From NCBI RefSeq assembly GCF_006345805.1, contig NW_021829617.1:1-35035 (forward strand): DNA of 35,035 bases. Reading direction: 5' to 3'. Both the position numbers and the translations under genes were made by a program. The first letter of the stretch is position 1; the number at the start of each line of letters is the position of its first letter. This DNA comes from Octopus sinensis (taxonomy: Eukaryota). Positions 4,601 to 35,035 of this stretch are shown in pieces. The notes beneath the pieces are model-generated. The model saw only the letters and a program-made list of their open reading frames with translations, did no database searches and was not told where the DNA came from.

Positions 4601-4899
4601 CTGGATAACTTTGAGTTCCGTAATCTTCCGCTGCAAAAATAATTAATATTTTATCGAATAATCGCGTTGAGGTAGTTTTTAAATATTTTAATTTAATAGA
4701 TAAAAATTCGAAAGGAGAAATATCGACAGTACTAATGACCAGACTTTAAAAATAGTTACCAAAATTTTACTCTTCGTGGTTTTATTAATAAAATGAAATT
4801 AATTGAAGTTAATCTTAATTCAAAATCAATGTAACAGGCTGCCCACAGGTATCGCGTGGCCCATGTGACATATTATAGCAACGTTCTTTATGAAATGAT

Positions 4900-5051
4900 A
4901 TGTACTGATGATCTTAAAAATACTATTCGACTTTATTGAAAATTAATATGAGGCAAATAATCGCATATGTGGGAGAAGCATGGAGTTGAGTAACAACAAT
5001 AACAATTGTTGGATGAAAATAAACTAACAGAGAACATGTTTTCCTGAAATT
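4900..5051 (+). pseudogene. pogo/Tigger (CENP-B-like) transposase remnant, left half of the interrupted target
   Basis: KINMRQIIAYVGEAWS*VTT, then after a frameshift NNCWMKIN*QRTCFPEI. This matches the AWxxV...TIxNCW helix after the DDE_1 domain and parallels the pogo fragment at 33.2-33.5 kb. Confidence 0.75.
5040..5051 (+). repeat. Target-site duplication, left copy (TTTCCTGAAATT)
   Basis: Abuts and overlaps the T18 tract at 5050-5067. Identical 12-mer at 10877-10888. Confidence 0.85.
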
Positions 5052-8000
5052 TTTTTTTTTTTTTTTTAAATTTCAAAATTTTAAAGAAACAAATGTCAGT
5101 TAATAAATTCAGAGAAGAGATTGATTTGAGAAATCAATTGAGGAAGCCCGCTGCCTGTATGGAAAGCGAGTTCCCTCGGAGTATGGCTATTCCGATCCTT
5201 TGTCTTAGCCATACTCCTTCACGAGGATCATTTTTCTTTGTGGCGAGCATTCTTCCGAGTTCGCGCAAGAACTCGGCAGTCGCTGGGCCAACTGCTCCTG
5301 ATGACTCAGCCGCAACAGGGGTGAATCTGTAGCGGTCCCCGAGGAAGGAATATTTTTTGGTTTTAAGGTTTTCCGCGATTGAGGCAGCTGCTCCAGGTGT
5401 CTGAACCGATTTAAGGAGATTCGTGCTTGAGTAAGTATCGACGCAAGTTGCGTCCCAGACCAAAGATCGTCCGGAGTTGAAAGGGAAAAGAGTCATCCCG
5501 TCAGGTCTCTTTCCATCACCTCGATCGAGACCCACTGGTTCAAGCTGTGCTGGGAAGCCTGCAGCCTTCAGAGCTCTGACGATCACGTCGTTCAGAGCGG
5601 CGTGACGTGGTCCTCTTCCGGCGGATCTCCTGCAGGATAGCGGGTGCAATCCCTTCGCATCGACCGTTTTCCCGCAGCGGCATCGGTGCTCCTGGCAAAC
5701 GTCTAGTCCAAGTCTTTGTCCGATTCCAATCCTCAAAGAATCGTCGTCCAAAAAAGTCCCGAGATTTGGGCAAGGGATTGCACCAAGCCATGCTCCGCTC
5801 CCTCCACTTGAGGCTGACACCAGGCAAGCAAGACGATGTTGATTTGCTTCTTTTTTAAGCCCTTCTGAAATTTTGGAGCAGACAATGTTATCCCAGTTCC
5901 TTTGTTTCGTTGTGTCTTCGGGGATTTTGAGTCCTGACCCGTTCCAATCCCGGCAAGCTTCATCAAATGACTCATTCCAGCGAAGTCCAATAGTGTGACG
6001 AAGGACTTGCCGTGTCAAATGGTTGCAGCTTGAGAGAGACGAAAGATATGCCGGGTACGCGACCTCCAGCGCCGATCTTAGACCGACACCCCCAAATCCA
6101 GAGGGAAGCTTACATTGCTTCCAACCGAGTTCGTCGAAGCGGACGTTGATTAGTGACTCAACAGTTTGTTTGAGAGATTTGTCTATCGAAAGTAGACTGT
6201 CGTAATGTTCGTGGCAGGGTGAACTTCGCAGTAGGTATAAAAGCTTGGGTAGTCCGATGTTGTTTCTCATCAGGAAGAAGGATGTGTGAGAGTCGAGGCA
6301 TGACAATCTTTTTGCGAGGCGAGATAATTCTTCATTTTTAGAAAGTAGATGGTTCCTGAGTTCGTCTTCACTGAGTGGACATCCAAGGAAATATAGTTTA
6401 TCAACTGGCACAGTCGGGATCCCGGGAAGCAGTTCGTTGAAAAACTCCTTGATAGAGAGAAAGTCGGTGTTTGAGTATGAGACATTTATTAACTCTGATT
6501 TGTTAATATTGATGTCCAATCCCAAGTGTTTTAATGCGGGAAGTGCTTGACGTAAAGAATTGTATGTTTCCTCGAATGATCCTCCAATTGTGGCATCGTC
6601 GAGATACCAGAGATTTAGTTGTGCGTCAATTGATCTCACAACATCATCAATTGTCAGGGCAAATAAGAGGGGTCCGAGCGGATCTCCCTGCTGGACACCA
6701 GTTTTTGATTTAATGATTTCATCATCAAAAACCAGAGACGTATCTTCTCCGTATGACAATTTAACAAGAGGGAAAAGCATGGGAGCCCTCTTCCAACACG
6801 TTTCCATAATGGAGTCTCTTCTGAGAGAATTGAATGCATTGGTTATGTCCAATTTGATTCCAATGCATTCGTTTGCAGTATTCTTCTGTGTGAAGAAACG
6901 CCTTGCTGCATGAACCGCTGCCTCACATCCGTTCTGGATACTAACACCCATTTGTTCTGGGAAGAACTCCGCACCGAGTGGGCGGCTCACGAGGGTCGAA
7001 GCAATCTTCGCTGCGAGTCTTCTGAAATAGTTTCCGACCGCAATGGGGCGGATTCCTCCGTTGGGTTTTTTGAACGCGAGTAGCCTTGCGGAGAAGAGCA
7101 ATTCTCTGGCATACTCCGGGATGTCGCCATTCACCATTTTCCTTATTAGGTCCGTGATCGATTTAACAAGACAGCGTCCTGCTTCCGAGGTGTAGGTGGA
7201 CGTTAGGTCCTTGATATGGCCGGGGCGTAACCCATCCAAGCCTCCGCTGCTGCTAGCGGCAAAGGAAGCGATTCCGCGCCGCACTTCTGATTCGGTAATC
7301 ATAATCTCTTGGGTTCCTTCAGGATTCGAGAACTTTACATAATCACTCGGTGCACTTGGGTGCTTCTGAATTAAGGTATTCAGGACCTCGGGGGTGCTAG
7401 ACAGCACGGTGTCATCGGACGTGATAACCCGTAGGGCTGCCCGCACATCGCCCTCCAGAAGTTTCCGATTCACTCGCTCCTTCAGTTTGTTGGGGGCATC
7501 TTTGGTGAATGCTCCTCTGGTTTTGACCGCATTGGCAATAAGTGGCTGTTCAAGTATTGCGTGTATGCTATGACTGCCGTAATTCAATATTCTTCCTTTC
7601 AGTTTCCCGGTTAAGTTTAGCCGGGGGTTTGTTTCTTTACTCTGGTTATCAGATTCCGTTGTAGGTGTTCCGAGTGCAACAGGTGCGAAGCATATAAGTT
7701 TTAGCCAGGATTCCCAGCTGTCAGAGGACAGTGCGTTGTCAATGAGGTCTGAAAGGCACGTTGCTGCGGCAATACGTGCTCCTTTTGGGATTTTTACTGG
7801 GATTTTCCTGGCTTTCCGGAGGTTCGAGATCTTCAAGAGAATGTGGTCAGTATGTGGTGATGTAAAGTTTGGCTGAGCTGTTGTTTTCCGCCTGGGGACC
7901 TCGTTTCCAATACAAGGGGGGCACTGCCAGCTTGACAGCGTCTCGGCGCAGGCTTTGCTCATTTTTATGCAGCCCAAATGGGCGAATGATTCACATGGCG

Positions 8001-8215
8001 TGCAGTTAATTCCAAATTTCCTGATATTCGACTGCCCACAAAAGAGACATGCCCGAGTTGTCCTCAGTGGCTTTGTTCCTCGTACTTCGTCTTCGCTTCG
8101 TTCTTTATTTACCATCTGAGGTTTCCGTTCCGTTTCCGTTAATCCGTTAATCACACCACAGCCTAAATTCGATTTTTTCTGAGGCCGAGAAAAAACACCA
8201 CTCCCTAAAGAGACT
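5050..8215 (-). mobile_element. Full-length CRE-clade (RLE-type) non-LTR retrotransposon with A18 tail
   Basis: Single intact ORF, 66-nt 3' UTR (5068-5133), pure T18 at 5050-5067 on the + strand, ~100-nt 5' UTR. The exact 5' end cannot be placed; it lies between about 8150 and 8255. Confidence 0.92.
5134..8115 (-). CDS. CRE-like polyprotein: PHD finger, reverse transcriptase, CCHC knuckle, restriction-like endonuclease (~993 aa from MVNKERS)
   Basis: RT motifs KKPNGGIRPIAVG, KLDITNAFNS, GVQQGDPLGPLLF, WYLDDATI, YFLGCP. Knuckle CRCG...HPLSC. Endonuclease KRPDG...LVWDATC...KKY...AESSG. N-terminal C4HC3 finger. No stops or frameshifts. The track's GTG start at 8289 runs into the neighbouring viral segment; ATG 8115 is the likely start. 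Confidence 0.95.
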   Translation of the reverse strand: MVNKERSEDEVRGTKPLRTTRACLFCGQSNIRKFGINCTPCESFAHLGCIKMSKACAETLSSWQCPPCIGNEVPRRKTTAQPNFTSPHTDHILLKISNLRKARKIPVKIPKGARIAAATCLSDLIDNALSSDSWESWLKLICFAPVALGTPTTESDNQSKETNPRLNLTGKLKGRILNYGSHSIHAILEQPLIANAVKTRGAFTKDAPNKLKERVNRKLLEGDVRAALRVITSDDTVLSSTPEVLNTLIQKHPSAPSDYVKFSNPEGTQEIMITESEVRRGIASFAASSSGGLDGLRPGHIKDLTSTYTSEAGRCLVKSITDLIRKMVNGDIPEYARELLFSARLLAFKKPNGGIRPIAVGNYFRRLAAKIASTLVSRPLGAEFFPEQMGVSIQNGCEAAVHAARRFFTQKNTANECIGIKLDITNAFNSLRRDSIMETCWKRAPMLFPLVKLSYGEDTSLVFDDEIIKSKTGVQQGDPLGPLLFALTIDDVVRSIDAQLNLWYLDDATIGGSFEETYNSLRQALPALKHLGLDININKSELINVSYSNTDFLSIKEFFNELLPGIPTVPVDKLYFLGCPLSEDELRNHLLSKNEELSRLAKRLSCLDSHTSFFLMRNNIGLPKLLYLLRSSPCHEHYDSLLSIDKSLKQTVESLINVRFDELGWKQCKLPSGFGGVGLRSALEVAYPAYLSSLSSCNHLTRQVLRHTIGLRWNESFDEACRDWNGSGLKIPEDTTKQRNWDNIVCSKISEGLKKEANQHRLACLVSASSGGSGAWLGAIPCPNLGTFLDDDSLRIGIGQRLGLDVCQEHRCRCGKTVDAKGLHPLSCRRSAGRGPRHAALNDVIVRALKAAGFPAQLEPVGLDRGDGKRPDGMTLFPFNSGRSLVWDATCVDTYSSTNLLKSVQTPGAAASIAENLKTKKYSFLGDRYRFTPVAAESSGAVGPATAEFLRELGRMLATKKNDPREGVWLRQRIGIAILRGNSLSIQAAGFLN

Positions 8216-8255
8216 AATAACCTCGTTGTTGTACATAGAGTTTGTATCAATACGA

Positions 8256-10004
8256 ATGAAAAATTTTCAGGATGAGATGCGAGAATCAATAGGCGACGTG
8301 GAATACCAACAGATAATAAAAGTGCAATGTCTAAAAGAGGGTGAAGAAAATAAACCGAGAACTATACCTCTCGGTGAATTTTTGAAGCCGAACTCTGAGG
8401 ATTGGGAGAATCCTGAGTATCAGAAGATATACATGGGAACCGGGCCCATACTGCTTAACATGAATGTGAAGATGGAGGTGGGAACATTTGCACGTGAGTA
8501 TCGACCATTCTTGGTTGAACTAAAATATAAGTACACCAAGAATGAGCGTGCGATTATAAACACACTCAATCGAATGGTAGACTTCAATCAGGATCTAGTC
8601 ACATCAAGCCTTGCGATCTTTTTGATGAACTATACCTTCGATATGAAGGCAAAATTCGGGGATGTAGAGATAACAGAAGAGTACCAAGATATAAAGGGTT
8701 ACTCTCTTGTCGGAAAAGGTTTCAAAATAAAAACTGCGCAAATGGCGATGAATTATGGAGAGTCAGGAGTAGATGGAGGAAGGGCTACTGTAGAAGAATG
8801 GCGGGCCGCATTGATGAAGGCACTGGCTCCAGTCAGATTTGCCCATGCAGCCGAGAGGAACCCCGACGCGGTCGATCCATTAACAGATCGATACCATTCT
8901 GTAATGAGGAGCTTAGACCCTACATATCAACCCGAAAGGTCGCTTGTCTTAAAGATGTACCAAAAGTACATCCCAGACCGTGATCTTGATAAGCTTTGTT
9001 GTCTTCTAGACAAAATGCTGTACACATGCCAAGATGATCCTATGTCCGGACTTAGGTTCTGTACTATACCATTTTATAACGCCGGGAATGCCGTCCTGTC
9101 TCGGGTCGTGTCATTGTGTGCTGCGTTCCCAAGTGAGCTTGAAAGAGCGATAATGGTGGAGTCATTGTTTGCATCTGCTCATGCCGGTGAAGTCGGTCGC
9201 TTCATCGGACATTGCTTTGAAGTTTTGAATCCAGACCATCTATGCATTTACCAAAAAGGTCTCGGCCTAGTCAAAGCTTCTGCATTTAGTTCAATGTCGT
9301 TGCCCGGATACTTTATGTATACGAGCGCAATAGCAGCTCTAATAAAGCATCCAAAATTTATGTTCTCACGCTCAATAACTCCAAACCCTCAGGCGATGGT
9401 AAATGGATTCCTTTTTGCCATCATGCATGAGACATATAGGACTGCTGGCGAAACTCCTGCATTAACAGCACAAGAGTACGCAGTAGAGAAAGCTATAAGT
9501 TTAGATCTTGCAAGAAATGTTCCCGCCGATGATCCTCAGAACACCTTGTCAGAAGCGCAGTATAAAATATATTGTGAGATTGTAAAGACTGAGGAATATA
9601 AACAAGTTGTAAAAGATATGGAGAAAATCGTCAATCCATATACATCTTTAGGAGTTAAATTAAAGAAACGTATGATGTACCATCCTTATTTAACACCGCA
9701 AGAGTACGACCATATTAAATCGCGTGTGGGCAATCAAAGGAAGAGAGAAGGTTCTCTACTCGAAGTTTTTACAAACTATGAACCGATATCGCATCCAGAT
9801 ATAACATTTATAGGGGGAGTTCCTAGGTACTCACTGGCTGAAGAAGAGGAGAAAAAGCGTTTAAGAGAGGATTTATACCGAAATGAAAATAATCAAAGGA
9901 GGGACACGCGTGAAAGGGACAATTTGAGGAGTATAAGGTTTGGTTCAGATGATGAGTCTTTTTATGATGATGAAGATAAATCTGATACTTCAAAGAAACA
10001 ATAA
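8256..10004 (+). CDS. Endogenous rhabdovirus-like nucleoprotein N (582 aa, intact)
   Basis: Two blocks align without gaps to VSV N as recalled from memory. LLDKMLYTCQDDPMSGLRFCTIPFYNAGNAVLSRVVSLC matches AVDMFFHMFKKHECASFRYGTIVSRFKDCAALATFGHLC. YQKGLGLVKASAFSSMSLPGYFMYTSAIAALIKHPKFMFSR matches YLIDFGLSSKSPYSSVKNPAFHFWGQLTALLLRSTRARNAR, the G(L/I)SxKSPYSS signature region. Intronless, unlike the host genes. Confidence 0.85.
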   Translation: MKNFQDEMRESIGDVEYQQIIKVQCLKEGEENKPRTIPLGEFLKPNSEDWENPEYQKIYMGTGPILLNMNVKMEVGTFAREYRPFLVELKYKYTKNERAIINTLNRMVDFNQDLVTSSLAIFLMNYTFDMKAKFGDVEITEEYQDIKGYSLVGKGFKIKTAQMAMNYGESGVDGGRATVEEWRAALMKALAPVRFAHAAERNPDAVDPLTDRYHSVMRSLDPTYQPERSLVLKMYQKYIPDRDLDKLCCLLDKMLYTCQDDPMSGLRFCTIPFYNAGNAVLSRVVSLCAAFPSELERAIMVESLFASAHAGEVGRFIGHCFEVLNPDHLCIYQKGLGLVKASAFSSMSLPGYFMYTSAIAALIKHPKFMFSRSITPNPQAMVNGFLFAIMHETYRTAGETPALTAQEYAVEKAISLDLARNVPADDPQNTLSEAQYKIYCEIVKTEEYKQVVKDMEKIVNPYTSLGVKLKKRMMYHPYLTPQEYDHIKSRVGNQRKREGSLLEVFTNYEPISHPDITFIGGVPRYSLAEEEEKKRLREDLYRNENNQRRDTRERDNLRSIRFGSDDESFYDDEDKSDTSKKQ

Positions 10005-10130
10005 AATATTTAGTTTAAAGTCTTTCCTTACGGTTAATCTAAATAATATCACATTTCTTTTAAAAAGAAATTGAAATAAACCAAAGAATTCAGTAATATT
10101 CATTGATATTTGAATCATATCAATTATATA

Positions 10131-10931
10131 ATGAGCAAAAAATATAATACAGAAGAACAAGAAGTAGAAAATCAAACACTTGAGGACGCGAAGAATATAA
10201 GCGCATTAAATAAAGTTTTCGAGCAAAAGGTCCTGAAGTCCAAACTAAGCGCAGAAGAAAAACGCGGATTATGGAAAGAATTAACCAAAGGGAAGGATGA
10301 ACACATAATTGGTAAGGCAACATCATTATTATTCAAACAATATGGACAAGCTGTGCAGTTTCTCTTTGAAGAAGCTGATTACAGCGATATGACGGTCACA
10401 TTTGATGCAAAAGATGAGTCATATCAAGATGACATGTCACGATTATATAGACAGACCCACAGCATAGATGAAAAGGACGAGATCAACAAAGGTGATGCAG
10501 CAATAGGCTGCTTTGAAAGAGCAATGATTAGATATCGCGGACATCAAATTGGTAGTGATATAGAATTTTATAAAGACTGGTTTGAAAGAAATATTATATA
10601 TGAAAGGTATACATATCTATACCCAATTGAGGAAGTGACACTCGCTGATCTTGATTTCTACAAAATGCTAAAAGAAATAAGCCATAGATATCATGGTGTG
10701 ATTAACAACTATTTATGTAATCGAACCAGACAGGAACATAATGTCTGGCTCAGAAACAAATCTGTAAATCTTGGTCCGCAAAAGAATGTTAGGTTAGAAG
10801 ATGTTATTAAAGAATCCAAGAAAAGAAAAGGTAACTTCACTGTTCATAAGAATGATCGTATAGATCGAGGATTTCCTTTCCTGAAATTAATTCAAAAAAA
10901 GAATCTGAATTATTTGATAAGAATGTTTTAG
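10131..10931 (+). CDS. Second viral gene, probably phosphoprotein P by position; viral part ends at 10876 and the last ~18 codons read into host flank
   Basis: Intronless ORF 126 nt after N on the same strand, with a charged and acidic N-terminus. The P call rests on N-P gene order only; no motif was recognised. Confidence 0.55.
   Translation: MSKKYNTEEQEVENQTLEDAKNISALNKVFEQKVLKSKLSAEEKRGLWKELTKGKDEHIIGKATSLLFKQYGQAVQFLFEEADYSDMTVTFDAKDESYQDDMSRLYRQTHSIDEKDEINKGDAAIGCFERAMIRYRGHQIGSDIEFYKDWFERNIIYERYTYLYPIEEVTLADLDFYKMLKEISHRYHGVINNYLCNRTRQEHNVWLRNKSVNLGPQKNVRLEDVIKESKKRKGNFTVHKNDRIDRGFPFLKLIQKKNLNYLIRMF
10877..10888 (+). repeat. Target-site duplication, right copy (TTTCCTGAAATT)
   Basis: Identical to 5040-5051 and marks the switch from viral ORF2 to the pogo reading frame. 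Confidence 0.85.
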
Positions 10932-11157
10932 CTTTAATGGATCTTGAAATAAACGGAATTGAGGATAATGATACTTTGTATAATGGAAATAATGAAATTG
11001 AAGGGTCCGACTTAAAAGATTCAATGAGAATAATTAATGATCTTGAAACTTCCTTATTCAACACTTGCCCTGAAGGACTCAAAGAATACTATGAATTCAA
11101 GATAAAAATGTCGAAGATTCTAAGAAATAATTCAAAATAACTGATTATTTTTCATAG
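10877..11157 (+). pseudogene. pogo/Tigger transposase C-terminus, right half of the interrupted target (includes track ORF 10937-11140)
   Basis: FPEINSKKESELFDKNVLALMDLE..., an acidic linker, a helical segment DLKDSMRIINDLETSLF, and after a 1-nt shift KITDYFS*, the typical pogo/Tigger terminal motif. Same frame as NNCW...CFPEI in the left flank. Confidence 0.78.
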
Positions 11158-11200
11158 AATAAATTAATTCCTCTTTTTAATACGAAAAACTTTATAGGTA

Positions 11201-11575
11201 AGAACAGACACCAATAAAAAAACTCTTTTAATATACATATAAACAAAAAAACTACAAATATAAAAATAAACAATAAAATATTAAAAATATACAAAATAGT
11301 GTGGAAAGAAATACATATGAATGGAGATTAATTAATTGATGAAATGAATACAAATTCACATGCAAAATAAACTTTATGCAGAATATTTTACAAGTAGTCA
11401 AGTTAATCAATCTTCAAACAAATAAAAAATGGAAATATTATAAAAATAAAACATTTATAGCACGAAATAATGAAATAAGAATTAAACAACAAAAGAAAGT
11501 AATATAACACGTGTAATAATTTATTGTATTTAATAAAATAAATTAAAAACATTTAAAAAATAAAATAACTTTTAA
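11201..11575 (+). repeat. AT-rich dispersed repeat homologous to 545-895 and 34014-34930, lacking the integrase-bearing segment
   Basis: agaacagacaccaataaaaaaactcttttaatat runs directly into tataaacaaaaaaactacaaat...aacttttaa, collinear with the other two copies. Confidence 0.9.
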
Positions 11576-11937
11576 CGTAAATCTATTTGAATTCAACTAA
11601 GAACGTTTTTTCAGACCGTTCACATAATAACATATTACATATCCCTTCTAAAGGCGTCATGTGATCCACCCGTTGGGAGGCGCCGTTAACAAAAGGATCA
11701 TTTGCTACCCACACACCCATTGGACGTCCCTTTGGGTCATCCTTCTGGATGCCTACAAGACAGTTAATTAGTTTGGTTTACTTGTGTCTGTTTGGTGTTC
11801 AAAATAAATAAAAATAAATAAAAGATTGATGGCATACCAAATTATTGCCTTTACTTTCTTTCGATTAAATTTTATTAAAATAAAACATGTAATTAAATTT
11901 TAATATTATTTTTAAATTTTGAATAGTATATATCATC

Positions 11938-15968: not shown

Positions 15969-16379
15969 CCTTTCAGTCTTTAAAGAACTAAATATCTTAA
16001 CTAATAATTTCTCTAATTCTAAAATATTTTTTGGGTTAATTATTTAACAAATTCGTTAATCATTATCCTATTACATCAAATTCGTCATTTCCAGTGAATT
16101 GTGATGATGACTTTAAATTTCAATTCTTAGTGTATTCAGTTTCAAGTTTATTACGGATACTCTTTTTTAAAATTCATTTCAGTTTCGTAGCTGTTTGTCT
16201 CCAAAAACTCGTCATTGCGTATTTCATCCGAATAAATCCTTAGTATGTAGCGCCAGATTATAAATGGATAGATATGTAACAATATAATTTAATTATTTTC
16301 TTTTTTTGGATAAATTTGTATTATTTTGATTAGTTTTAGATCCTGATTTGTGTGTTTGCTAAAGCAAAAATCAGAAATG

Positions 16380-17000
16380 ACAACACTAAAATATTGTGGT
16401 CTTCGACTCCTGACAACACTAAGATCCTTGGCGTGGTCTTCGACTCCTTAATGACGTTCTCAAGTCACGTGGAGGAGGCCCTAGCTAAAGGTCTTCGGAA
16501 GTGGAACGTCTTGAAAGCTCTGTTAAAGAAGAGTCCCTTCCCCCTGAAAGCTTGTGTCAGCAAGGTCTACCAACAAGTGATTGCCCCGACGGTTAAGTAT
16601 TCCTGCTCAGTCTGGAGGTTTGCAATTGCTTGTTCGAAAGCGGAACGTTTGAACTCACTCAGAAGGAAGATTATGCTCCACACTGACACCTCAGTTGGCA
16701 GCCTTGCTTCCGAGGAGGCGACGCAAAAGAATGGACAGGGTTTCCTATGTTTCTGCAAGGAACTGGGAAACCCATTCAAGGAAAAGATGGCTTATGCAGA
16801 GGAATTTCGGTCGGTTATAAAGAAATGCACTCCAATTGAGTTCCTCTGCAGAAGGAAAAGAAGGCGTTTCCGGGTTACGGTCGGGTCATCAGAAGATCAT
16901 GTAAAGAGAGTACGGCTGTTGTTGAAAACAGGGATCACCTAATTAGTTAGTTCTGACCTATCTTTCTCGGTGATCTTGGAGTTAATAAATAAATAATAAA
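16380..17000 (+). mobile_element. 5'-truncated LINE (APE-type clade) RT C-terminal fragment
   Basis: KILGVVFDSLMTFSSHV...VYQQVIAPTVKYSCSVW is the LG/thumb region of a non-LTR RT. AAT-rich tail near 16983-17000; short duplication at the 5' junction. Confidence 0.8.
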
Positions 17001-18307: not shown

Positions 18308-20118
18308 ATGTCACTCCGAGTACCCGTCCCTGCAGGAATTGAACGAATGATGAAACAAGGCTCCCAAGTATCAATCCCCCAATAACCCATCCCAGCGTCA
18401 TACCGGACTAGAAGACGGAGTATATCGCAACATTGAAGCATGTATTCAACTTGCAAATTACATAAACACAACTTTCGGCCCAAATGGCAATCCTACTAAA
18501 TAAAAATTCCCAGGAAGAAGTAAAATGGTGATAAACTATCTCGAAAAATTATTTGTGACCTCCGATGCCTCCACAATCGTGAAAGAACTCGACGTCCAAC
18601 ACCCTGCCTGCAAATTAGTCGTGATGGCCATCCAACACCAAGAACGAGAATGTGGGGACGGGACAACCCAAGTGCTCCTTCTTTGTGTCAATCTTCTCGA
18701 AAATGCAGCCAAACTTTTAAAATCAGTTCGATTTTAGTTTTTTTGACATCCAAAGGGACTTCCTCTTAAAGATGTGATTTCAGGATTTCAAAACGCTTTG
18801 GATTTTTGTTTAAAGACCCTCCCCGGTGTTTTCACGGTGAAATATTTTTTAGAGTTGGTTGTGGACTCCCCGGTGGATCTCAAAGACAAAAATTCCGTGA
18901 TTAAAGCCATCCGTACCCCAATATCCTCAAAACAGTGTGGATTGGAGGATTTGATCACAGATTTAGTGGCCGATGCCTGCAGTATTCCAAAAAGTGAATA
19001 AAAACGTAATTTAGTGTCAATTTTGCCACCATCTGGCAAGTTCAGTGTGGACAATGTGAGAGTTTGTCGCATTCTGGGGTCGACGGTGGAATGTTCCCGA
19101 ATAATGGAAGGGATGGTGATCGAGACAAACCCGAGAGTGTGGAGACAAGTGTAGAAGGTGGAAAAATATTGATATATTCGTGTGCATTTGATGTGGCACA
19201 CACCGAGACGAAGGGGACAGTTTTGATCAGGACAGGAGAAGAGTTGGTCAATTTTAGTCGGAGTGAAGAGAGGAGTATTGAGGAGGTGAATATGGCACTA
19301 TATTTGTAGCAAGTAAAGGCAATTGCTGAGACTGGTTGTAACGTGGTTGTGTCTATTGGGAAGGTTGGGGACATGTATCGACATTTTGCGAATAAGCATG
19401 GACTCGTTCTTATTAGATTTACCTCAAAGTTTGATCTCCGTCGACTTTGTTTGCTGACGGGAGCCACTCCTCTCCCAAGATTGGTGGTGCCTGATCAGGG
19501 GGAGTTGGGGAGGTGTGATTCTGTCCATTTTGAGGAGATGGGAGCACTCATGTTGTCCTTTTCAAGCAGACAAGTTTGGTGTCGACTGTCATCCTGCGTG
19601 GTTCATCTGACCATATTATGCTGGATGTGGAGAAGGCAGTGGATGATGGGATCAATGCCTTCAAGTCCCTCACGAGGGATAATCGGTTATTGCCCGGGGG
19701 AGGGGCTGTGGAGTTGGAATTGGCCAACAGACTGAATGTTCTGTCGTGTCCTGGTGCATTGGAGCAGTGTTCATTGGCCATGCTGGAGTGGTGAGACAGA
19801 TTGGAGACAACGGGGGACTGAAGGAACAGTCAATGCATTACTTGGTGAGCATGTGAAGGGGAGTGTGAATGCGGGGTATATTGCGGAGGGGGATAGTCTT
19901 CGAATGGGGGATGTTGTGGAGGCTGGATTGTTTGATTTGTATAACACTAAGCATTGGGTGATAAAGAATGCATTTATACTGCTATTACTATTTTGAGGAT
20001 TGATGAGGTGAGGGGTGTTTTGTATTTGTAGGTTATCATGTCTAAGCCAGCTGGAGGACCCCGACCGAGGGAGACGGGGACTAATGCAGTGAGAGATACT
20101 GGACCGGAAGAAGACTAG
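18308..20118 (+). CDS. CCT8: T-complex protein 1 subunit theta, multi-exon; apparent homopolymer frameshifts
   Basis: MSLRVPVPAGIERMMKQGSQ/RHTGLEDGVYRNIEAC...FGPNG/RSKMVINYLEKLFVTSDA...GDGTT; LRGSSDHIMLDVEKAVDDG; ends VIMSKPAGGPRP...EED*. Introns are 24-33 nt. Confidence 0.95.
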
Positions 20119-21298: not shown

Positions 21299-22799
21299 CA
21301 GTGGTTCTCAACCTGGGGTCCGCGAAAGATTCCAGGGGGTCCGCGAGATTTTTCTGAAACTTTATTTAAATGTTTCTATTTAATGATAACAATTTTAAAT
21401 TAATATATAATAGAATTAAATCATAATTAATAATATCTCTTTTAGATATATTATAAATTAATATATTTTAATATTCAATAATACTGAGGAGGCTAAATTA
21501 CTTTAAAGCTGAATGTAACTCAATTATTTATAAAAATCGTATATATGTTTATTTTTTAGTAAAAGTTAATAAAATTTTTAATCACGCTATTGATATGAAT
21601 TCCTCGAATGTTATTAAGATACACAAATATAATCCTGATTATATAAAATATGGGTTTATTTGTATTGATAAAGATGGATTTGAAAGCCCAAAATGTGTTG
21701 TGTGCATGAAAATTCTGTCACACAATAGCATGAAACCAACAACTCTTGTGAGAGGAAACGAAACATATGCATTGTATGCTACATCGATATGCACTTGCTG
21801 CAAAAACATTACCTTCAGATTTAAGATATGTTCTCGATGATGTCGTACATATCATAAATTATATTAAAAAGAGTGCTTTAAATTCGCGCATTTTCAGACT
21901 TATTTGCGAAGAATTTGAAAAGGATGGAAAGGCTTTGTTATTTCACACTGAGGTGAGATGGCTATCTCGGGGAAACGTTCTTGCCAGAGTTTTTTCTTTG
22001 AGGAATGAATTATCTGAATATTTTATCCGCGAAAACAATTCCAAATCATCGGAATTTATTTCGAAATTAATGGATAGTTCATGGCCATCTAAACTTGCTT
22101 ACTTGAGAGATGTCTTCTCTCGTATAAATTCACTCAACAAATCGCTTCAGGGAAGACATGAAACAATAATTGATTTTGTGGATAAAATTAAGTTTGTTAA
22201 CTGTTTCATATTAATTATTAGTGCTTTTTTGATGAAGTCAACACTGTGGAAAGAAAAAGTAAAACTAAATAATTTTACTATGTTTGAATCTTTTGAAGAA
22301 CAATCTGTAAATATAGATGCATTTGAAATCAAAAAAATAACCGAACTTATTTATGCACATTTAACATATCTTCAACAAGAAGTAAATAAAAATACTTTCC
22401 AGAATTGAACGAAATTGATTTGAAATTCATTCGTACACCATTCAGTGTTGATCCACGTTTGGTCGATGAAAATATCGAAGAGGCTTTTATTGATATGATC
22501 AATAATTCAAACGCAAGAGATTTGTATGAAAAACTTGCTTTATCAAGATTTTGGTGCGAAATGTGTAAGCATTATCCTTCCGTAAGCGCAAATGCATTAA
22601 ATTTGTTGCTTATATTCCCGACAACATATTTATGCGAACATGGTTTCTCAGCAGGGGGTCTCAGCATTGATTTAATAATAAATTTTGTTTTTAGATAAGT
22701 AAAATTTTTTTGACAAAAAACTTAATAAATACAGGGGGTCCGCGAAATTTTTCATTTACTCACAAGGGGTCCGCGGACAAAAAAGGTTGAGAACCACTG
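21299..22799 (+). mobile_element. Buster-type hAT, same family as 3495-4329, with a different internal deletion
   Basis: TIRs CAGTGGTTCTCAACCT / AGGTTGAGAACCACTG. 8-bp TSD AACTATAG (21291-21298, 22800-22807). Transposase pieces HCMLHRYALA, LLFHTEVRWLSRG and FPTTYLCEHGFS. Confidence 0.96.
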
Positions 22800-23161: not shown

Positions 23162-26100
23162 TCATGAAAACTCACTCTGATACTCAGCCTCATCCCACAA
23201 ATCATGTAGGTCAGCCTTCTTAGCACAATCCCTCTCTTCACTACCCACAAACAGTCCAATCAACTCCTCCGTCTCCATCGACAGCAGACTACTATTCTCC
23301 TCAGAAATAACCGTGGACGACAACAATCTCTTAAATCGTTGCAAACAAAAATAAAGCACAAATCCAACTTCATAATCTTGTCCTCGACTGTGTCTGTAGT
23401 AATCAGTCGGTACACATTCACTGCCCTCCTCTGGCCTATTCGATGAGCTCGGTCCATCGCCTGTGGGTCAGTCCCTCCTCCTACCTGCATGTCATTCGTC
23501 GGGTTCCAATCGTGGTCCATGAAAATAATTATGTCCGCCCCCGTCAGACTCAGTCCGTGTCCACCAATGGCCGTCGTGGCCAACATAATCTCCACCGAGG
23601 GGTCAGAATTGAACCTTCCACTAACCAATCACCCCTCACATATTAGCACAGTCCACCCTCTCCTTTGCCGGCACTGTCCCGTCCAGTCTCATATACACCA
23701 CACTCCCCATATGCACACTAAATACACACATCACACTCACTTTAACATATCCCTTATTATTATGTCAATAAATGCCCTTGTCTGACAAAATATCACTGCC
23801 CTGTGCCCACAACTGACCGAATCAGCCACCCCAATCCCACAGTTCTCCAACAGACCTCTATCCCTCTCAATCATAAGCATACTTGAGTGCCACTAACTTC
23901 CCCGACACCCCAATGTCCTTCACATTGACATTCAAACGGACACACATCGACTCCACTTTGTCCACTTCTTTCAGCAGTCCAGGGTGATTGCAGATCAGCC
24001 GAGATTTATTTATCAGCTACAATGAGAGACACAGTACTGAGAGCTTCCATCCACTGTCCTTTCGGTCTCCACATTTAGTCACAATCAGAGAGAGGGAGTT
24101 GTAGAGGGCTGTTTGGAGTGGACTCATCTGGCAGTGGTAGTCCTGGATTGTCTTGGGAGGGAGGTCATTGAGGACATCCTCCTTCATCCTCCTCAGAATG
24201 AAGGGGAGGACCATTTTGTGCAAACTCTGCAGAGCTATCAGTCCCTCTGATGGCTGGAGGGACGTGGGGTCAGTCTGATCTCTCAGGGACATGACTGTCT
24301 TTACAAATCGACGGTTGAAGGCTCGCTCAGTGCCGAGGAACCCAGGCATAAGAAAGTCAAACAAGGCCCAAATATCCCCCACATTGCCCTGAACTGGTGT
24401 CCCAGTCAATATAAGTCTATTCTTACACTTCAACAACTTTAAAGCCCGCGAAATCTATTTAATTTAAAAATAGAATAAATAAACCTTATTATTTGGGTTT
24501 CTTACGACATGTCCTTCATCCAATATACAAAAGTCCCACTCAATCGAACTAAAGAACTCAATGTCGTACCGCAATGTCTCGTATGACACCACCACAACAT
24601 TATAATTCAAAATAAACTCCCGCAACCTTTATTAATTATTTAAATATACTTTTCTCTTTTTCTTTTAACTCCAGAATATATAATATGAGTAAGGAGTTTA
24701 TCATCAAAGAATTTATCAATCTCATAATGCCAGTGAGTGGTCAACGTGACTGGACACACCACCAGAGAAGGCTTCCACCCAGTGGACTTGTAGTGGCTGT
24801 GGAGGAGGACTATCACTTGGAGTGTCTTCCCCAGCCCCATGTCGTCGGCCAGTATTCCATGCAGTCCATATGTGTGGAGAAACCTCAGCCAACTCACTCC
24901 TTCCTGCTGGTAAGGACGAAGACATGTCCTCAGTTCAGGAGGGGTCTCCACTAACATTATATTGCCCGGGTTGGTCAGATTGTCCAGGAGTTGTCTCCCC
25001 CTCTCCCACACCTCCCTCACTCCACTCTCCACATCCTCCACTGAATAGGCTGCCTGCAGAGGGAATAGTTCACCCAGTTTGGAGAAACACAGGGCGGCCA
25101 CTGTCCTCACATGTCCCACGTGGTCTCCCAGTGAGGACAGGACGGGCAGGATCAGCACTGGCACGTGTATAGCCAGGGAGGGACATTCACATATATCTAC
25201 CAGTTTAGTCACGTGCTTACGGAATATGCACTCAATCACCCCCACACGTGACCAACAGCCATTCAATTCCTCAAAAAACAACCAAATAATTTCCCGCGTA
25301 TACATGTTCCCGCCAAAATACCAATAAAACGTGCACACATGTGACGAACTAAACAATCCGAGTGAACTATGCATTGTTTTAGGAGGGAAAAATCGTTGAT
25401 AGAATGTTCTAGAATGTTCTCGGCCAGGTATGGAACAATCAATTCAGTGCATAATAAATTGTGAGATATATCCTCGACAGACATGTCTGAAGATATCATC
25501 AAATAGACCACAACTCTGAGATTTTTCAAAAACTGAGAATTGTTTTTTGATGAAATCGTCAAATCCAGCAATTTTATTCTCTTCATATGAACATAAGAAT
25601 TTCAAAGATAATTCCGCACCTCGCCTTTGGATGTCAGTCCCATTTGTCTAAATATTAATTAATTATATTTATAATATTAATTAAATAAATCAATAAACTT
25701 TATAAATTAAGGGATCCAAAAAATCGACGTTTGTTGTTGTGGGGAAACTAAATCTCGAGGCCCTTCTCAATTGAGTAGACTAAATTAAAACCAAAAAATA
25801 CCCAATCAGGGAGAGCAGAGGCAATGACAACCGTCGAGTCAGTCAATCCCTCCTCTAAGATGACTGACTATCCTAACCTTCCATCATCACCCCCAATGAC
25901 TCTCTCAACGACGACAGAGGAGGAATAGATAACTTCCTCAAGTTGTCCAATATTTTACCAGCCGACTGAGGACATGCCCTGATCAAGGCAGGCACAAAGG
26001 ATGCCGACAACACCTTATATATAATGACAGCCACACCTGCAAAGTACAGCAGTTCTCACATTGTAAAGAGTCCATGATGGGCTTCACCACAGGGGAAACC

Positions 26101-28598
26101 CTCTCCAAAATCAACCCCGCAGAGACCACAGCCATTGAGGCAGCACAGCGAGTTCTAGGGTACTCTCTGGCCTATATATACCTCCGAATATTCGAGGATT
26201 GAATAAGACTGCATTCCCGCAATGCCCACGAAAATGAACTGTAATATCGATCCATAATTTGTCTATTCTCATCCTCCGTGTTAAACGTACCACAAAGAGC
26301 CAGCACGCTTTTCTCCAATTGACAGGCCGTGGTATACGTCCACGTCATACTGCAGTCGACAGAAGGGCATACCCAATGGGAATGTCCTTCCCTTCTAACT
26401 GTAGTGACAACCCAAGACGGGCACACTCCATTGCCAGGTTGTTGCAGAGAGCACTCAGTGTAGACAGGTTGGCCACATCCTCGTCATAGCAGATGACGTC
26501 ACTCAGTTGGGCTTTCATCGTCTCTTTGATCTCTTCCGTCAATAGAAAGTGCTGTTTGATAAGAGTGGAGACAAACTTTGTTGATGGCAAATATTTCCGC
26601 CACCGTGAAGAGTACAATCTGCCTGTGGATGGCATTGCGGTGACAGAGGTGACGAAATATTAGTTTTTGGATAACATTCCCCATTTCTCCACCAATCTGG
26701 GCAACCACAGTGGCAATCATCCTATAAACTGACAAATACAACAAACCTGCACATTGTGAGTCTAATCTGATAAACGACATCCTCCCTCTCACTTTGTGGT
26801 AATGTAGACAAGTCACCCTCTCCAATACTTATATGAAATGACCTCTGTGTGTAAGCACGGAATATTACCATGTTACTAAACCCGGCGGAGATTATACTCT
26901 CAGGGACGTGTGACCCCATTGGTTGGGAGGCCAGGAGTAGCCAGGTGTCCACAGCAATGACAATGTGTAGGTCAGTCAGACTGGCTATGAATGGCTCAGT
27001 CAACGTCTCCCAACACTACGACTACAGACAACCCTCACCCTGAACATGGCCTGTCTCATATCACTCCCTATCTCAAGGAAGGTGAGGGCAAATATATTCT
27101 TCATAAACCCCAGCAGCAAATCAAAGTTTAATATGCCGGGCTCCTAACAATAAGCCCAGTCAGTACATGTGCAATGACCAGACACACAATCTGCCTGAAA
27201 GCAGAGAAGGCATTAATCCTCACATGGGAGTAAGAACTGTCAAAGAATGTGCTGACACGTCTTAGTAGTGCCTCAGTCAAATGACTACACAATAAGTATA
27301 TAAGCCACGTTTGGAGTATTTCCCCACTCAGACTGATTAGACTCGTCAGGAGTAATAAAGCCTTGTCTGCTGCCGATGAGAGATCTGTCGAGTCACCCAG
27401 GACTGTGATTGTCCTCCCAGTTATGTCACGTAACTAAATGTGTGGAGATATTCTCACAACCTGATCAGGAGACAGCACCACAACCAGTCGATCTGCCACA
27501 TTTGTGAGCACTCCTGCAGCCAGAGATACGTTTGCTTCATCTTCTGACACAGAAAGGAGTCTGACCACAGCAATATAACTGCTGGAGTAAATAAATGACC
27601 ATAAACAGTCTAATGGAATCAAACAATCAATAATACATTTTCTGAGGCAGAAATGTATTTTAATATGAGTAGTCCACTGTGGCGAACCTCCCACTCACAA
27701 TAAAACATCATCCGCACAGAAAATTCTAGAATTGTACCACGTGATTGATCAGAAAGTGCGGGAAATATTTGACAAATCACTTGTGCTAACGTTTCTCTCA
27801 CAGGGGCCACCATCTACTGGTGAAATCACGGAAAATAACCTCCCCGGAGACATAGTCCCCAAACCTGTCCAAGACAAGTACACAAATCACTCTCAGAGCA
27901 ATAAAATGGAGAGGAATCAAACTTTCCGTGGGAATAATGTCAAAACATCCACTTTCCGCGGTCTCCGGTAACACGGAATTCCCTCCGTTTTTGAGAACCT
28001 CACGGAGGGCCACGGCAAATCCGTGTCTGGCCTGCCACTGGAGACTGAATATGCCATCCAAGGCAGTCCTCAGTATCCCAGTCATGTCGTACTGCTCCCT
28101 CACATTCATTTCCGTGATCGGCAAAACACGGAAAATCACGGAATCACAAAAAACGGTAATTTCTTCTTTCTGTATTGTTTTAAGTCTTTTTGAGGGTGGT
28201 TCTAAAAATAAATAAAACACGGAAAAACGTGGACTATCTCCAAGGACAGAAGGACAGTCGGAGAGAAGCAACATTCCAGAGGCAATGACTCTCTCAAGAT
28301 CAAACTGTGTTAAATTGGCGGGAAATATGGGTGTATTTTGTGGGGCAGAGGAAGTGAAGGATTGCATGGCCAGAGCGAGGGCATATCCAGTGGCAATGCG
28401 AGTGTCCCACGAATGGTCGGTCAGGCAGCGAATAAGCTGTGGATGTGAGGGTGGGGAGTGCCTGTGAGTATGCCTGGCTGGAGAAATGTCTTAGAAGGGA
28501 GTATCCAATTTGTTCGGCCGAGTGTTGCTTGATGGAAATGCTGGAGCCTGATTCCAGCAGGGAGAACAGTTTGGAGAGGAATGGTGTCTTGTGGCCAT
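23162..28598 (-). CDS. BTAF1: TATA-binding protein-associated factor 172 (Mot1), Snf2-family ATPase with HEAT repeats; many micro-introns and apparent frameshifts
   Basis: N-terminus MATR...LSKLFSLLESGS...SWDTRIA; VAPVRETLAQ; WQARHG; LRPYQQEGVSWL...GILADDMGLGKTLQ; RLILTGTPVQ; LPFILRRMKEDVLNDLPPK; IGGHGLSLTGAD; QAMDRAHRIGQ; DLWDEAEYQSEF. Confidence 0.95.
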
Positions 28599-34060: not shown

Positions 34061-35035
34061 CGTGAGCCTGGGCGACAGGAGTGTTGGACGAAACGGACTA
34101 TTCAGTATTTTAAGAAGAACTTTTTACATTGCACTAGAGACCAAATTTCAGCAATCATTCGTTGTTTTTCAAAAAAAACAATGGCTACTCGCGCGATAAA
34201 TATATTCTTCAAAAAATGATGGTATTCTGGTAAGAATCAATAAATTAATGAATAGATTCTTGTAGTGATTTACTCATTCTCCAAATTTGGAATTGTTGAT
34301 ATTGCAAAGACAAAAAATGAAGAAGAGATTACTGAATTGTTTCGGAAAATTTTTATGGATATCAAACACCACAACAATTCTGCATACCGACAATGGTAGA
34401 GAATTGAAAAATTCTAAAATGCATGCGATGTGCCTCGAGTTGGGCACTAAACAGATATTTGGTAGACCTCGTGCCTTGGATACAAGGTCAAGTTGAAAGG
34501 TAGATACAAGGTAATTTAACATTAAGATTCAATCAATCAATAAAAAAAGTGGATTTCGTCAACAAATGCTTCAGTCTGTATAAACAAAAAAAACTACAAA
34601 ATATGAAAATAACAATAAATATTAAAAATATCAAAAAGATGTGAAAAGGAATACATATGAATGGAGATTAATTAATGATGAAAATAAATACAAATTCACT
34701 GCAAATAAACTTTATGCAGAATATTTTACAAGTAGTCAAGTTAATCAATCTTCAAACAAATAAAAAACGGAAAAAATAATATAAAAATAAAAACATTTAT
34801 AGCACGAAATAATGAAATAAGAATTAAAAACAAAAGCACAACAAAAGAAAGTAATATAACACGTGTAATAATTTATTGTATTAATTAAATAAATTAAAAC
34901 ATTTAAAAAATAAAAAAACTTTTAAAAATAACTGTAGATCCTTAAGTCCCCGGTTCGAATCCGGGTCGCGGTACTTTTATTTTACATCGTCGGTATAATT
35001 AAATTACATTTTTGTTTGTTTTTTTATTTAACCAA
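34061..35035. repeat. Terminal direct repeat, copy 2, including the integrase fragment, the tRNA-Tyr half (34931-34973) and the CRE poly(A) tail
   Basis: Collinear with 1-1004 and runs to the window end inside the CRE 3' UTR. Confidence 0.97.

Follow-up and report, generated by a model that had tools for sequence, protein, structure and literature searches.

The window analysed here is the whole of a 35,035-nucleotide (nt) contig (NW_021829617.1, positions 1 to 35,035 of the forward strand) of the Octopus sinensis assembly GCF_006345805.1. It carries a full-length CRE-type retrotransposon without long terminal repeats (non-LTR) and 2.7 kb of rhabdovirus-like sequence, enclosed together by one 12-nt target-site duplication.

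The insertion and its target

The 12-mer TTTCCTGAAATT has exactly two exact copies in the window, both on the plus strand: the left copy at 5040-5051, at the junction with the poly(A) tail of the element, and the right copy at 10877-10888. A similar sequence with one mismatch occurs at 8017, inside the open reading frame (ORF) of the element; 0.79 matches with at most one mismatch are expected by chance. The insertion interrupts a dispersed host repeat of ~0.5 kb, the left part of which lies at 4871-5051 (paralogue matches run from 4871 or 4955 to 5049-5051) and the right part at 10877-11189. Throughout the assembly, similarity to the proximal left flank breaks off at 5049-5051. On the right side, 22 of 25 flank matches elsewhere in the genome begin exactly at 10877, and none begins upstream of this position. 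All 19 paralogues examined display the empty site, i.e. left flank, a single 12-mer (exact in 11, with one mismatch in 8) and right flank, contiguous. Over the 40 bases upstream of the paralogue 12-mer, 32 to 38 positions match the left flank of the window in 18 paralogues, the remaining one having a left-flank match offset by an indel, whereas the same 40 bases match the viral side of the window at only 11 to 13 positions. Because the right-flank matches start at 10877 and never earlier, and because each of the 19 paralogues has one 12-mer, the duplication is real and not a product of chance. Since both flanks belong to a dispersed host repeat with an empty site in every paralogue examined, positions 5052-10876 represent one insertion. 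The first-pass annotation of this DNA, made from the sequence alone, had placed the duplication at these coordinates, proposed a single insertion event and suggested a search for the empty allele; the empty site in the paralogues agrees with the coordinates and with a single event.

The element lies on the minus strand. Its poly(A) tail is the 18-nt T run at 5050-5067, two bases of which are shared with the duplication, in agreement with the A18 tail described earlier. It is followed by the 3' untranslated region (UTR; 5068-5133), the distal part of which varies among family copies, and by a single intact ORF of 993 residues (8115 to 5134) encoding a PHD-like finger, a reverse transcriptase, a CCHC knuckle and a restriction-like endonuclease of CRE type. 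The 5' UTR (8116-8162) contains 19 nt of short tandem re-copies, at 8124, that are foreign to the other family copies, and stops ~5 nt short of the usual 5' end. The element had been thought to reach near 8255; its end is in fact at 8162, and the next 44 nt (8163-8206) form a linker that has no other copy in the assembly and may be filler, viral leader or both. An 8-bp hairpin in this linker is not significant (z -1.3).

In Pfam searches the reverse transcriptase was recognized as RVT_1 (E=1e-17) and the PHD finger only weakly, whereas the cysteine-histidine knuckle and a KRPDG..WDAT motif in the C-terminal part were read directly. The best solved relatives of the protein are R2 proteins (E=8e-9), and the 120 homologues listed for the C-terminal region include P0104, "Retrotransposable element SLACS protein" (54%, E=1e-68). 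A single ORF with a reverse transcriptase followed by a CCHC motif and a PD-(D/E)xK-type endonuclease is a feature of the CRE clade, as are target-site duplications, which measure 12 nt here and 12-14 nt at loci L022, L028 and L032 and at the 5'-truncated L034 and L038. Insertion into spliced-leader genes, typical of most early-described CRE members, was not found, as 19 other copies have no common flank. By architecture and duplication, the element fits the CRE clade (R2 group), as had been predicted.

The viral sequence lies on the plus strand, head-to-head with the 5' end of the element. The 5' UTR of its first gene (8207-8255) begins at a putative gene-start motif, and the viral likeness of four other copies of this gene (L081, L082, L088 and L099) begins at the point matching 8207. 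The gene itself, an intact ORF of 582 residues (8256-10004), was earlier taken for a rhabdovirus-like nucleoprotein (N). Its score against PF00945 (E=0.0064) is under the cut-off, and among 1.84 billion proteins its only non-repetitive matches are P0004 (31%, E=5e-5) and P0005 (26%), both of which belong to PF00945 and are rhabdoviral N proteins, the former at 2.5e-55; the hhalign probability is 94.8. These results offer weak but consistent indications that the protein is homologous to rhabdoviral N. No match was obtained with N in a single-sequence PDB search or in a word-index search, and Atlas searches with N and ORF2 (see below) gave only matches under 0.9. The AlphaFold model of N has a mean predicted local distance difference test score (pLDDT) of 39. 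Profile A2, built from the N copies of the assembly without P0004 and P0005, found no viral N in the PDB; a strong match of profile A1 to N of vesicular stomatitis virus (VSV) was rejected as circular, since A1 contains these two proteins.

Downstream of N, an intergenic region of 19% GC (10005-10130) lacks a poly(A) tract and contains a similar gene-start-like motif at 10063, so that a shared putative motif precedes both N and the second viral ORF (ORF2; 10131-10865). ORF2 occupies the P position, is truncated and has no useful Pfam or Atlas match; copies 61-70% identical to it occur at L093-L095, L097 and L098. Homologous copies extend 12-45 residues beyond the break at ~10865, where viral homology ends. 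The frame remains formally open to 10931, its last 18 codons being host repeat. This corrects the earlier view, in which ORF2 stopped making sense at 10877-10888. Between the end of viral homology and the duplication lies an 11-nt junction filler (10866-10876), the last 5 nt of which repeat the first bases of the duplication; short re-copies are present at both junctions of the insertion. The right part of the host repeat is the source of the apparent ORF2 end and also of a 67-residue ORF (10937-11140), which was considered as a third viral gene and rejected because it is host repeat in the paralogues. From the rhabdoviral gene order N-P-M-G-L, the insertion holds N and a second ORF without family match only, and no L polymerase.

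It is extremely unlikely that the locus is an assembly chimera of an element copy and contaminating viral sequence. Such an origin would suit a contig that is short (35 kb), unplaced and repeat-rich and that contains a CCT-theta gene with frameshifts; however, a mis-join would not stop at both ends precisely on the 12-nt target of a host repeat, and the viral part occurs without differences in contigs of runs X1 (8298-10834) and X2 (10532-10812), which were guessed to be DNA and stem from one sample, possibly the source of the assembly. No RNA run is listed for this sequence. No listed run contig bridges 5050, 8162-8207 or 10877, X1 has no piece at 8224-8297 or past 10834, and X3 and X5 do not cover the viral part; as these records are filtered, such holes prove nothing. 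Record 7 of X1 (window 10083-10356), a low-depth contig, is ~90% like the intergenic region and the start of ORF2 and represents a close variant of the virus; none of the assembly matches to the viral segment corresponds to it.

The element family and a probable single insertion event

Other matches to the element in the assembly number at least 45 among those listed, 13 of which reach the 5' end, with 40 of 419 candidates scored. Over the ORF region, the window element is 99.2-99.7% identical to 12 of the 14 family copies compared, and because the ORFs of the insertion are also intact, the insertion is considered young, as the first-pass annotation had it. The family as a whole is also young and not site-specific. 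Adding sequence at the 5' junction is a habit of this family. Extra bases lie between the duplication and the 5' end of the element at L022, L028, L030 and L032, and at L028, which is virus-free, the duplication recurs there a second time in imperfect form (as good a score is reached by 0.8% of random controls). Inverted 23-31-nt copies of the family 3' UTR were observed between the flank and the 5' end of the element at L024 and L029, and the 3' ends of the family are highly variable.

Whether the insertion is a one-off or a copy of a mobile retrotransposon-virus hybrid family had been left undecided. A hybrid family could be envisaged from the intact state of both ORFs and from a unit with one duplication and a tail. 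However, among 29 matches to the viral segment in the assembly only the window itself exceeds 84%, and the separate genome search proposed earlier, run with N, ORF2 and one L fragment, found no match in 19 other element copies taken with 1.5-kb flanks; furthermore, the viral genes point away from the direction of element transcription. With no other close viral match and no virus in any of these copies, the insertion does not represent a mobile hybrid family, and membership in one is highly improbable within this assembly, where the 40 of 419 candidates scored would leave room for a rare second copy. The window insertion thus appears to be a fixed one-off.

We consider it very probable that the locus arose by a single target-primed insertion during which the reverse transcriptase of a CRE-type element used two RNAs as templates, one being the full-length transcript of the element itself and the other a rhabdovirus RNA. 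The 12-nt staggered cut in the host repeat, the poly(A) tail at the first nick, the complete element and the single duplication form the basis for this reading, according to which the first nick would have primed on the poly(A) tail of the element and the same enzyme would also have made the viral DNA. The viral template would have spanned N, the gene junction and most of ORF2. The copy runs from N into ORF2 with no poly(A) tract between them; a single-gene mRNA therefore did not serve as template, which leaves a genome, an antigenome or a read-through RNA.

Two routes to the viral part can be proposed, and the sequence does not separate them. In one, which we give close to an even chance, the first strand would run off the 5' end of the element, stutter and jump to the 3' end of a minus-strand viral RNA. 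The stutter at the 5' end of the element and the 44 extra nt upstream of the gene start point in this direction, and template jumping and non-templated addition, both shown for R2 reverse transcriptase (PMC8857657), fit it. In the other, a reasonable possibility of somewhat less than even chance, the second nick would prime on plus-strand viral RNA inside ORF2 and the two complementary DNAs (cDNAs) would be joined head-to-head with filler, resembling the twin priming described for L1 (PMC2912911). Locus L088, which stops at the putative N gene start, favours this second route because no free minus-strand end is expected there.

Some points weigh against a single copying event. The linker begins with an imperfect copy (8 of 9) of part of the duplication, at 8162-8169, which might be left over from a separate duplication; a score as good is reached by 4.4% of random control 16-mers. 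The genomes and antigenomes of rhabdoviruses are normally coated by N, so either genome-length template would be hard to reach. Lastly, human L1 chimeras are attributed to prior RNA ligation rather than to jumping in PMC8857657.

The partial copy bears on a two-step history. The element would first have inserted alone and produced a duplication of its own; viral cDNA from elsewhere would have been added at its 5' junction in a later repair that duplicated the same 12 nt again. A separate duplication around the element alone, sought near 8150-8255, is not present as a perfect copy, and only the imperfect one was found there. The abundance of CRE as well as viral pieces on these contigs would also suit two steps. 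Such a history nevertheless requires a second cut at exactly the same 12-nt offsets and the decay of one copy while all else remained pristine, and the virus-free L028 has the same kind of imperfect second copy; we regard it as improbable. Ligation of viral minus-strand RNA to the element transcript before reverse transcription, the route stated for L1 chimeras in PMC8857657, would explain why the element is full length, as ligation at the 5' end would need. It is very unlikely here, as the re-copies in the 5' UTR and the linker's partial copy of the target have the look of polymerase products and ~5 terminal bases of the element are missing. A single target-primed insertion thus remains the reading we prefer.

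The host genome and other viral insertions

Dicyemids are parasites of the renal sacs of cephalopods. Two further results, neither of which figured in the first-pass annotation, are the probable origin of the contig from such a parasite and the recurrence of viral capture in the assembly. The window contains two compact genes, CCT-theta (18357-20080, plus strand) and a BTAF1/Mot1-like gene (23260-28490, minus strand); the frameshifts of the former are either errors or decay. Another small contig carries a copy of the CCT-theta piece at 97%, and the chromosome-scale contig C19 carries a homologue at 47%. The best database match of the piece (97%) carries an octopus label, and no named dicyemid sequence is among the database matches. 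Candidate introns, obtained by splicing and scoring DNA, measure 24-33 nt in 6 of 8 cases in CCT-theta, and one intron of BTAF1 (23461-23484) measures 24 nt. The GC content of the window is 37%, and CpG is not depleted (0.85, vs 0.41 at a locus on C23). Matches to the element, to N/ORF2 and to the target repeat are absent from C19 and C23, and none lies beyond 0.7 Mb of any contig. Dicyemids have a median intron of 27 nt (PMC6543705) and a genome of 36.7% GC with many LINE (long interspersed nuclear element) copies (PMC6736024). From the introns of 24-33 nt and the second CCT-theta on a chromosome-scale contig, we infer that the contig probably derives from a dicyemid co-assembled with its octopus host; the insertion would then most likely have occurred in the dicyemid germ line.

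Elsewhere in the window lie a second, decayed CRE-type fragment, another non-LTR reverse transcriptase fragment and, recognized by eye, a hAT-like transposase remnant (1180-1524, 16340-16942 and 21472-22698, respectively), and an AT-rich repeat is present in three copies (190-992, 11201-11576 and 34223-35025).

Rhabdoviral sequences occur repeatedly in the assembly. When ten N segments were compared, 38 of the 39 pairs with at least 60 aligned codons differed at 0.59-1.0 of synonymous sites, with a nonsynonymous divergence (dN) of 0.015-0.29. Synonymous divergence this high with low dN implies that the copies diverged as viruses and represent nine lineages. The mononegavirus L family has 33 matches and rhabdoviral G has 3. 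The L141 piece is rhabdoviral: the two L structures that match it best, one of them named VSV, give E=4e-90 and 4e-84, whereas the next gives 4e-8. Locus L139, which holds four of the L matches on chromosome-scale C23, is low in CpG and does not resemble any of the 14 other L loci fetched at the DNA level; it is perhaps an octopus insertion of another viral lineage.

Direct virus-CRE junctions other than that of the window occur at L088, head-to-head as in the window, at L090 and at L141/L145. At L088 (4476-6460), the 5' part of an N with 96% amino-acid identity to that of the window lies head-to-head with a 5'-truncated element of another CRE family. A third CRE element, near-complete, is placed tail-to-tail with this N, and 300 nt of coding-like sequence follow. 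At L141 (2770-2815) and its paralogue L145, a rhabdoviral L frame is fused to a CRE 3' end with a ~20-nt tandem re-copy at the joint. An N fragment at L084 (3517-4410, minus strand) runs directly into a 298-residue open frame without Pfam match, possibly a piece of another virus, and degenerate telomere-like repeats lie beside viral insertions at L092 (2300-2340) and L152 (3205-3220).

An 875-nt host repeat with a fixed first base is also involved (L089:5409-6283; also L081:5003, L087:4582, L091, L152:3113, L153:1668 and L154-L158). Five viral pieces of different lineages (three of N and two of L) stop either at its first base or no more than ~25 nt away from it. Ten starts of the repeat are listed: five follow rhabdoviral N or L, at loci that had been picked for virus, four follow coding-like sequence and one follows a tandem repeat. 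When the N pieces next to the repeat are compared with one another, their synonymous sites are saturated, but the mismatches of the repeat itself amount to only 3-4%. CRE scrap is embedded in some copies, and the repeat is therefore not simply CRE-derived. At five loci picked by the repeat alone (three of them independent), no recognized viral family was found upstream.

From these observations one might propose a standing route of virus capture in the dicyemid, in which CRE-type reverse transcriptases would repeatedly copy rhabdoviral RNA into repeat-rich loci and the 875-nt repeat would act as a fixed docking point. We consider this doubtful. CRE sequence is present in 18 of 20 viral 10-kb loci vs 2 of 18 arbitrary stretches, a raw contrast that shrank when stretches of the same contigs served as controls, 12 of 20 of which also contain CRE sequence; much of the association is therefore regional. 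Direct junctions, with events grouped by eye and 15 stretches fetched for the 33 L matches, amount to 2 of 17 N/ORF2 events (p=0.046) or 3 of ~29 with L included (p=0.02), against a background of 2.0%. Loci L087, L089 and L091 did not enter this count, their CRE match being scrap inside the 875-nt repeat. An initial test of adjacency, in which 6 of 17 lay no more than 300 nt apart (p=2.5e-4), was rejected since these loci made up three of the six. No convincing enclosing duplication was found around L088, L141 or L086, and at L086 the CRE element seems to have an 8-nt duplication of its own. The regional controls, the small junction counts and the duplication results also weigh against the single target-primed insertion preferred for the window.

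The entry of non-retroviral RNA viruses into the germ line is usually deduced from nearby transposons or from a poly(A) tail. The window instead preserves the enzyme gene, the viral passenger, the duplication and the empty site together, in an active family, and the mechanism can therefore be tested with the very enzyme concerned. It also suggests that viral insertions are made by CRE-type elements in addition to L1 and LTR elements. The nine N lineages imply repeated infection of dicyemids by one rhabdovirus family, and rhabdoviruses reported from cephalopod samples could partly belong to their kidney parasites. Users of the assembly should be aware that these viral insertions are probably not those of the octopus. 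Should the loci of the capture route considered above yield antisense small RNAs, they would constitute an acquired antiviral memory with a defined acquisition site.

Comparison with known systems

Our literature search, with most subscription journals and supplements (possible octopus viral-insertion lists among them) outside its scope, found neither an RNA virus co-inserted with a CRE- or R2-group element nor any dicyemid virus.

Among the closest parallels are the LINE template-switch chimeras (WEIRD-MGL of Magnaporthe and mammalian U6-L1; PMC2104539), in which a copy of a foreign RNA likewise lies at the 5' side of a non-LTR element inside one duplication. The window shares with them a passenger and an element in one duplication, a tail at the 3' end of the element and a known empty site. 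In contrast to these chimeras, its passenger comes from a negative-strand RNA virus, comprises two genes and lies in opposite orientation, and its element is full-length and of the restriction-like-endonuclease type. Two cDNAs joined head-to-head within one duplication are also known from 5'-inverted L1 copies made by twin priming (PMC2912911); there, both cDNAs come from one RNA and extra bases are rare, whereas in the window another RNA is inverted and a 44-nt linker is present.

Copying of mononegavirus RNA by a non-LTR reverse transcriptase is likewise seen in L1-made VSV cDNA and in the bornavirus elements cited with it (PMC4038843). In those cases a single mRNA was copied in trans, from its poly(A) to its cap, and no element accompanies the copy, whereas the window insertion has no viral poly(A), crosses a gene junction and was co-inserted with an element. 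Viral fragments joined to retrotransposons in repeat-rich regions, rhabdoviral ones included, are also known from Aedes (PMC5497376; see also the LCMV-IAP (lymphocytic choriomeningitis virus-intracisternal A-type particle) case cited in PMC4038843). The Aedes flanks are enriched in LTR elements and depleted of non-LTR elements (3.9-5.5% vs 12.8%), with no P or M insertions detected; in the present assembly, a non-LTR element of CRE type takes this place, and copies of the second gene are common.

Finally, members of the CRE clade (CRE1, SLACS and MoTeR; PMC3636483) have in common with the window element the single ORF, the reverse transcriptase followed by CCHC and PD-(D/E)xK endonuclease, and the target-site duplication. 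Unlike them, the window element has an N-terminal PHD-like finger and a family whose copies, not confined to spliced-leader genes or telomeres, lie in unrelated sites. In summary, template-switch chimeras and retrotransposon-made viral insertions were already known, and our literature search found no case involving a CRE-type element.

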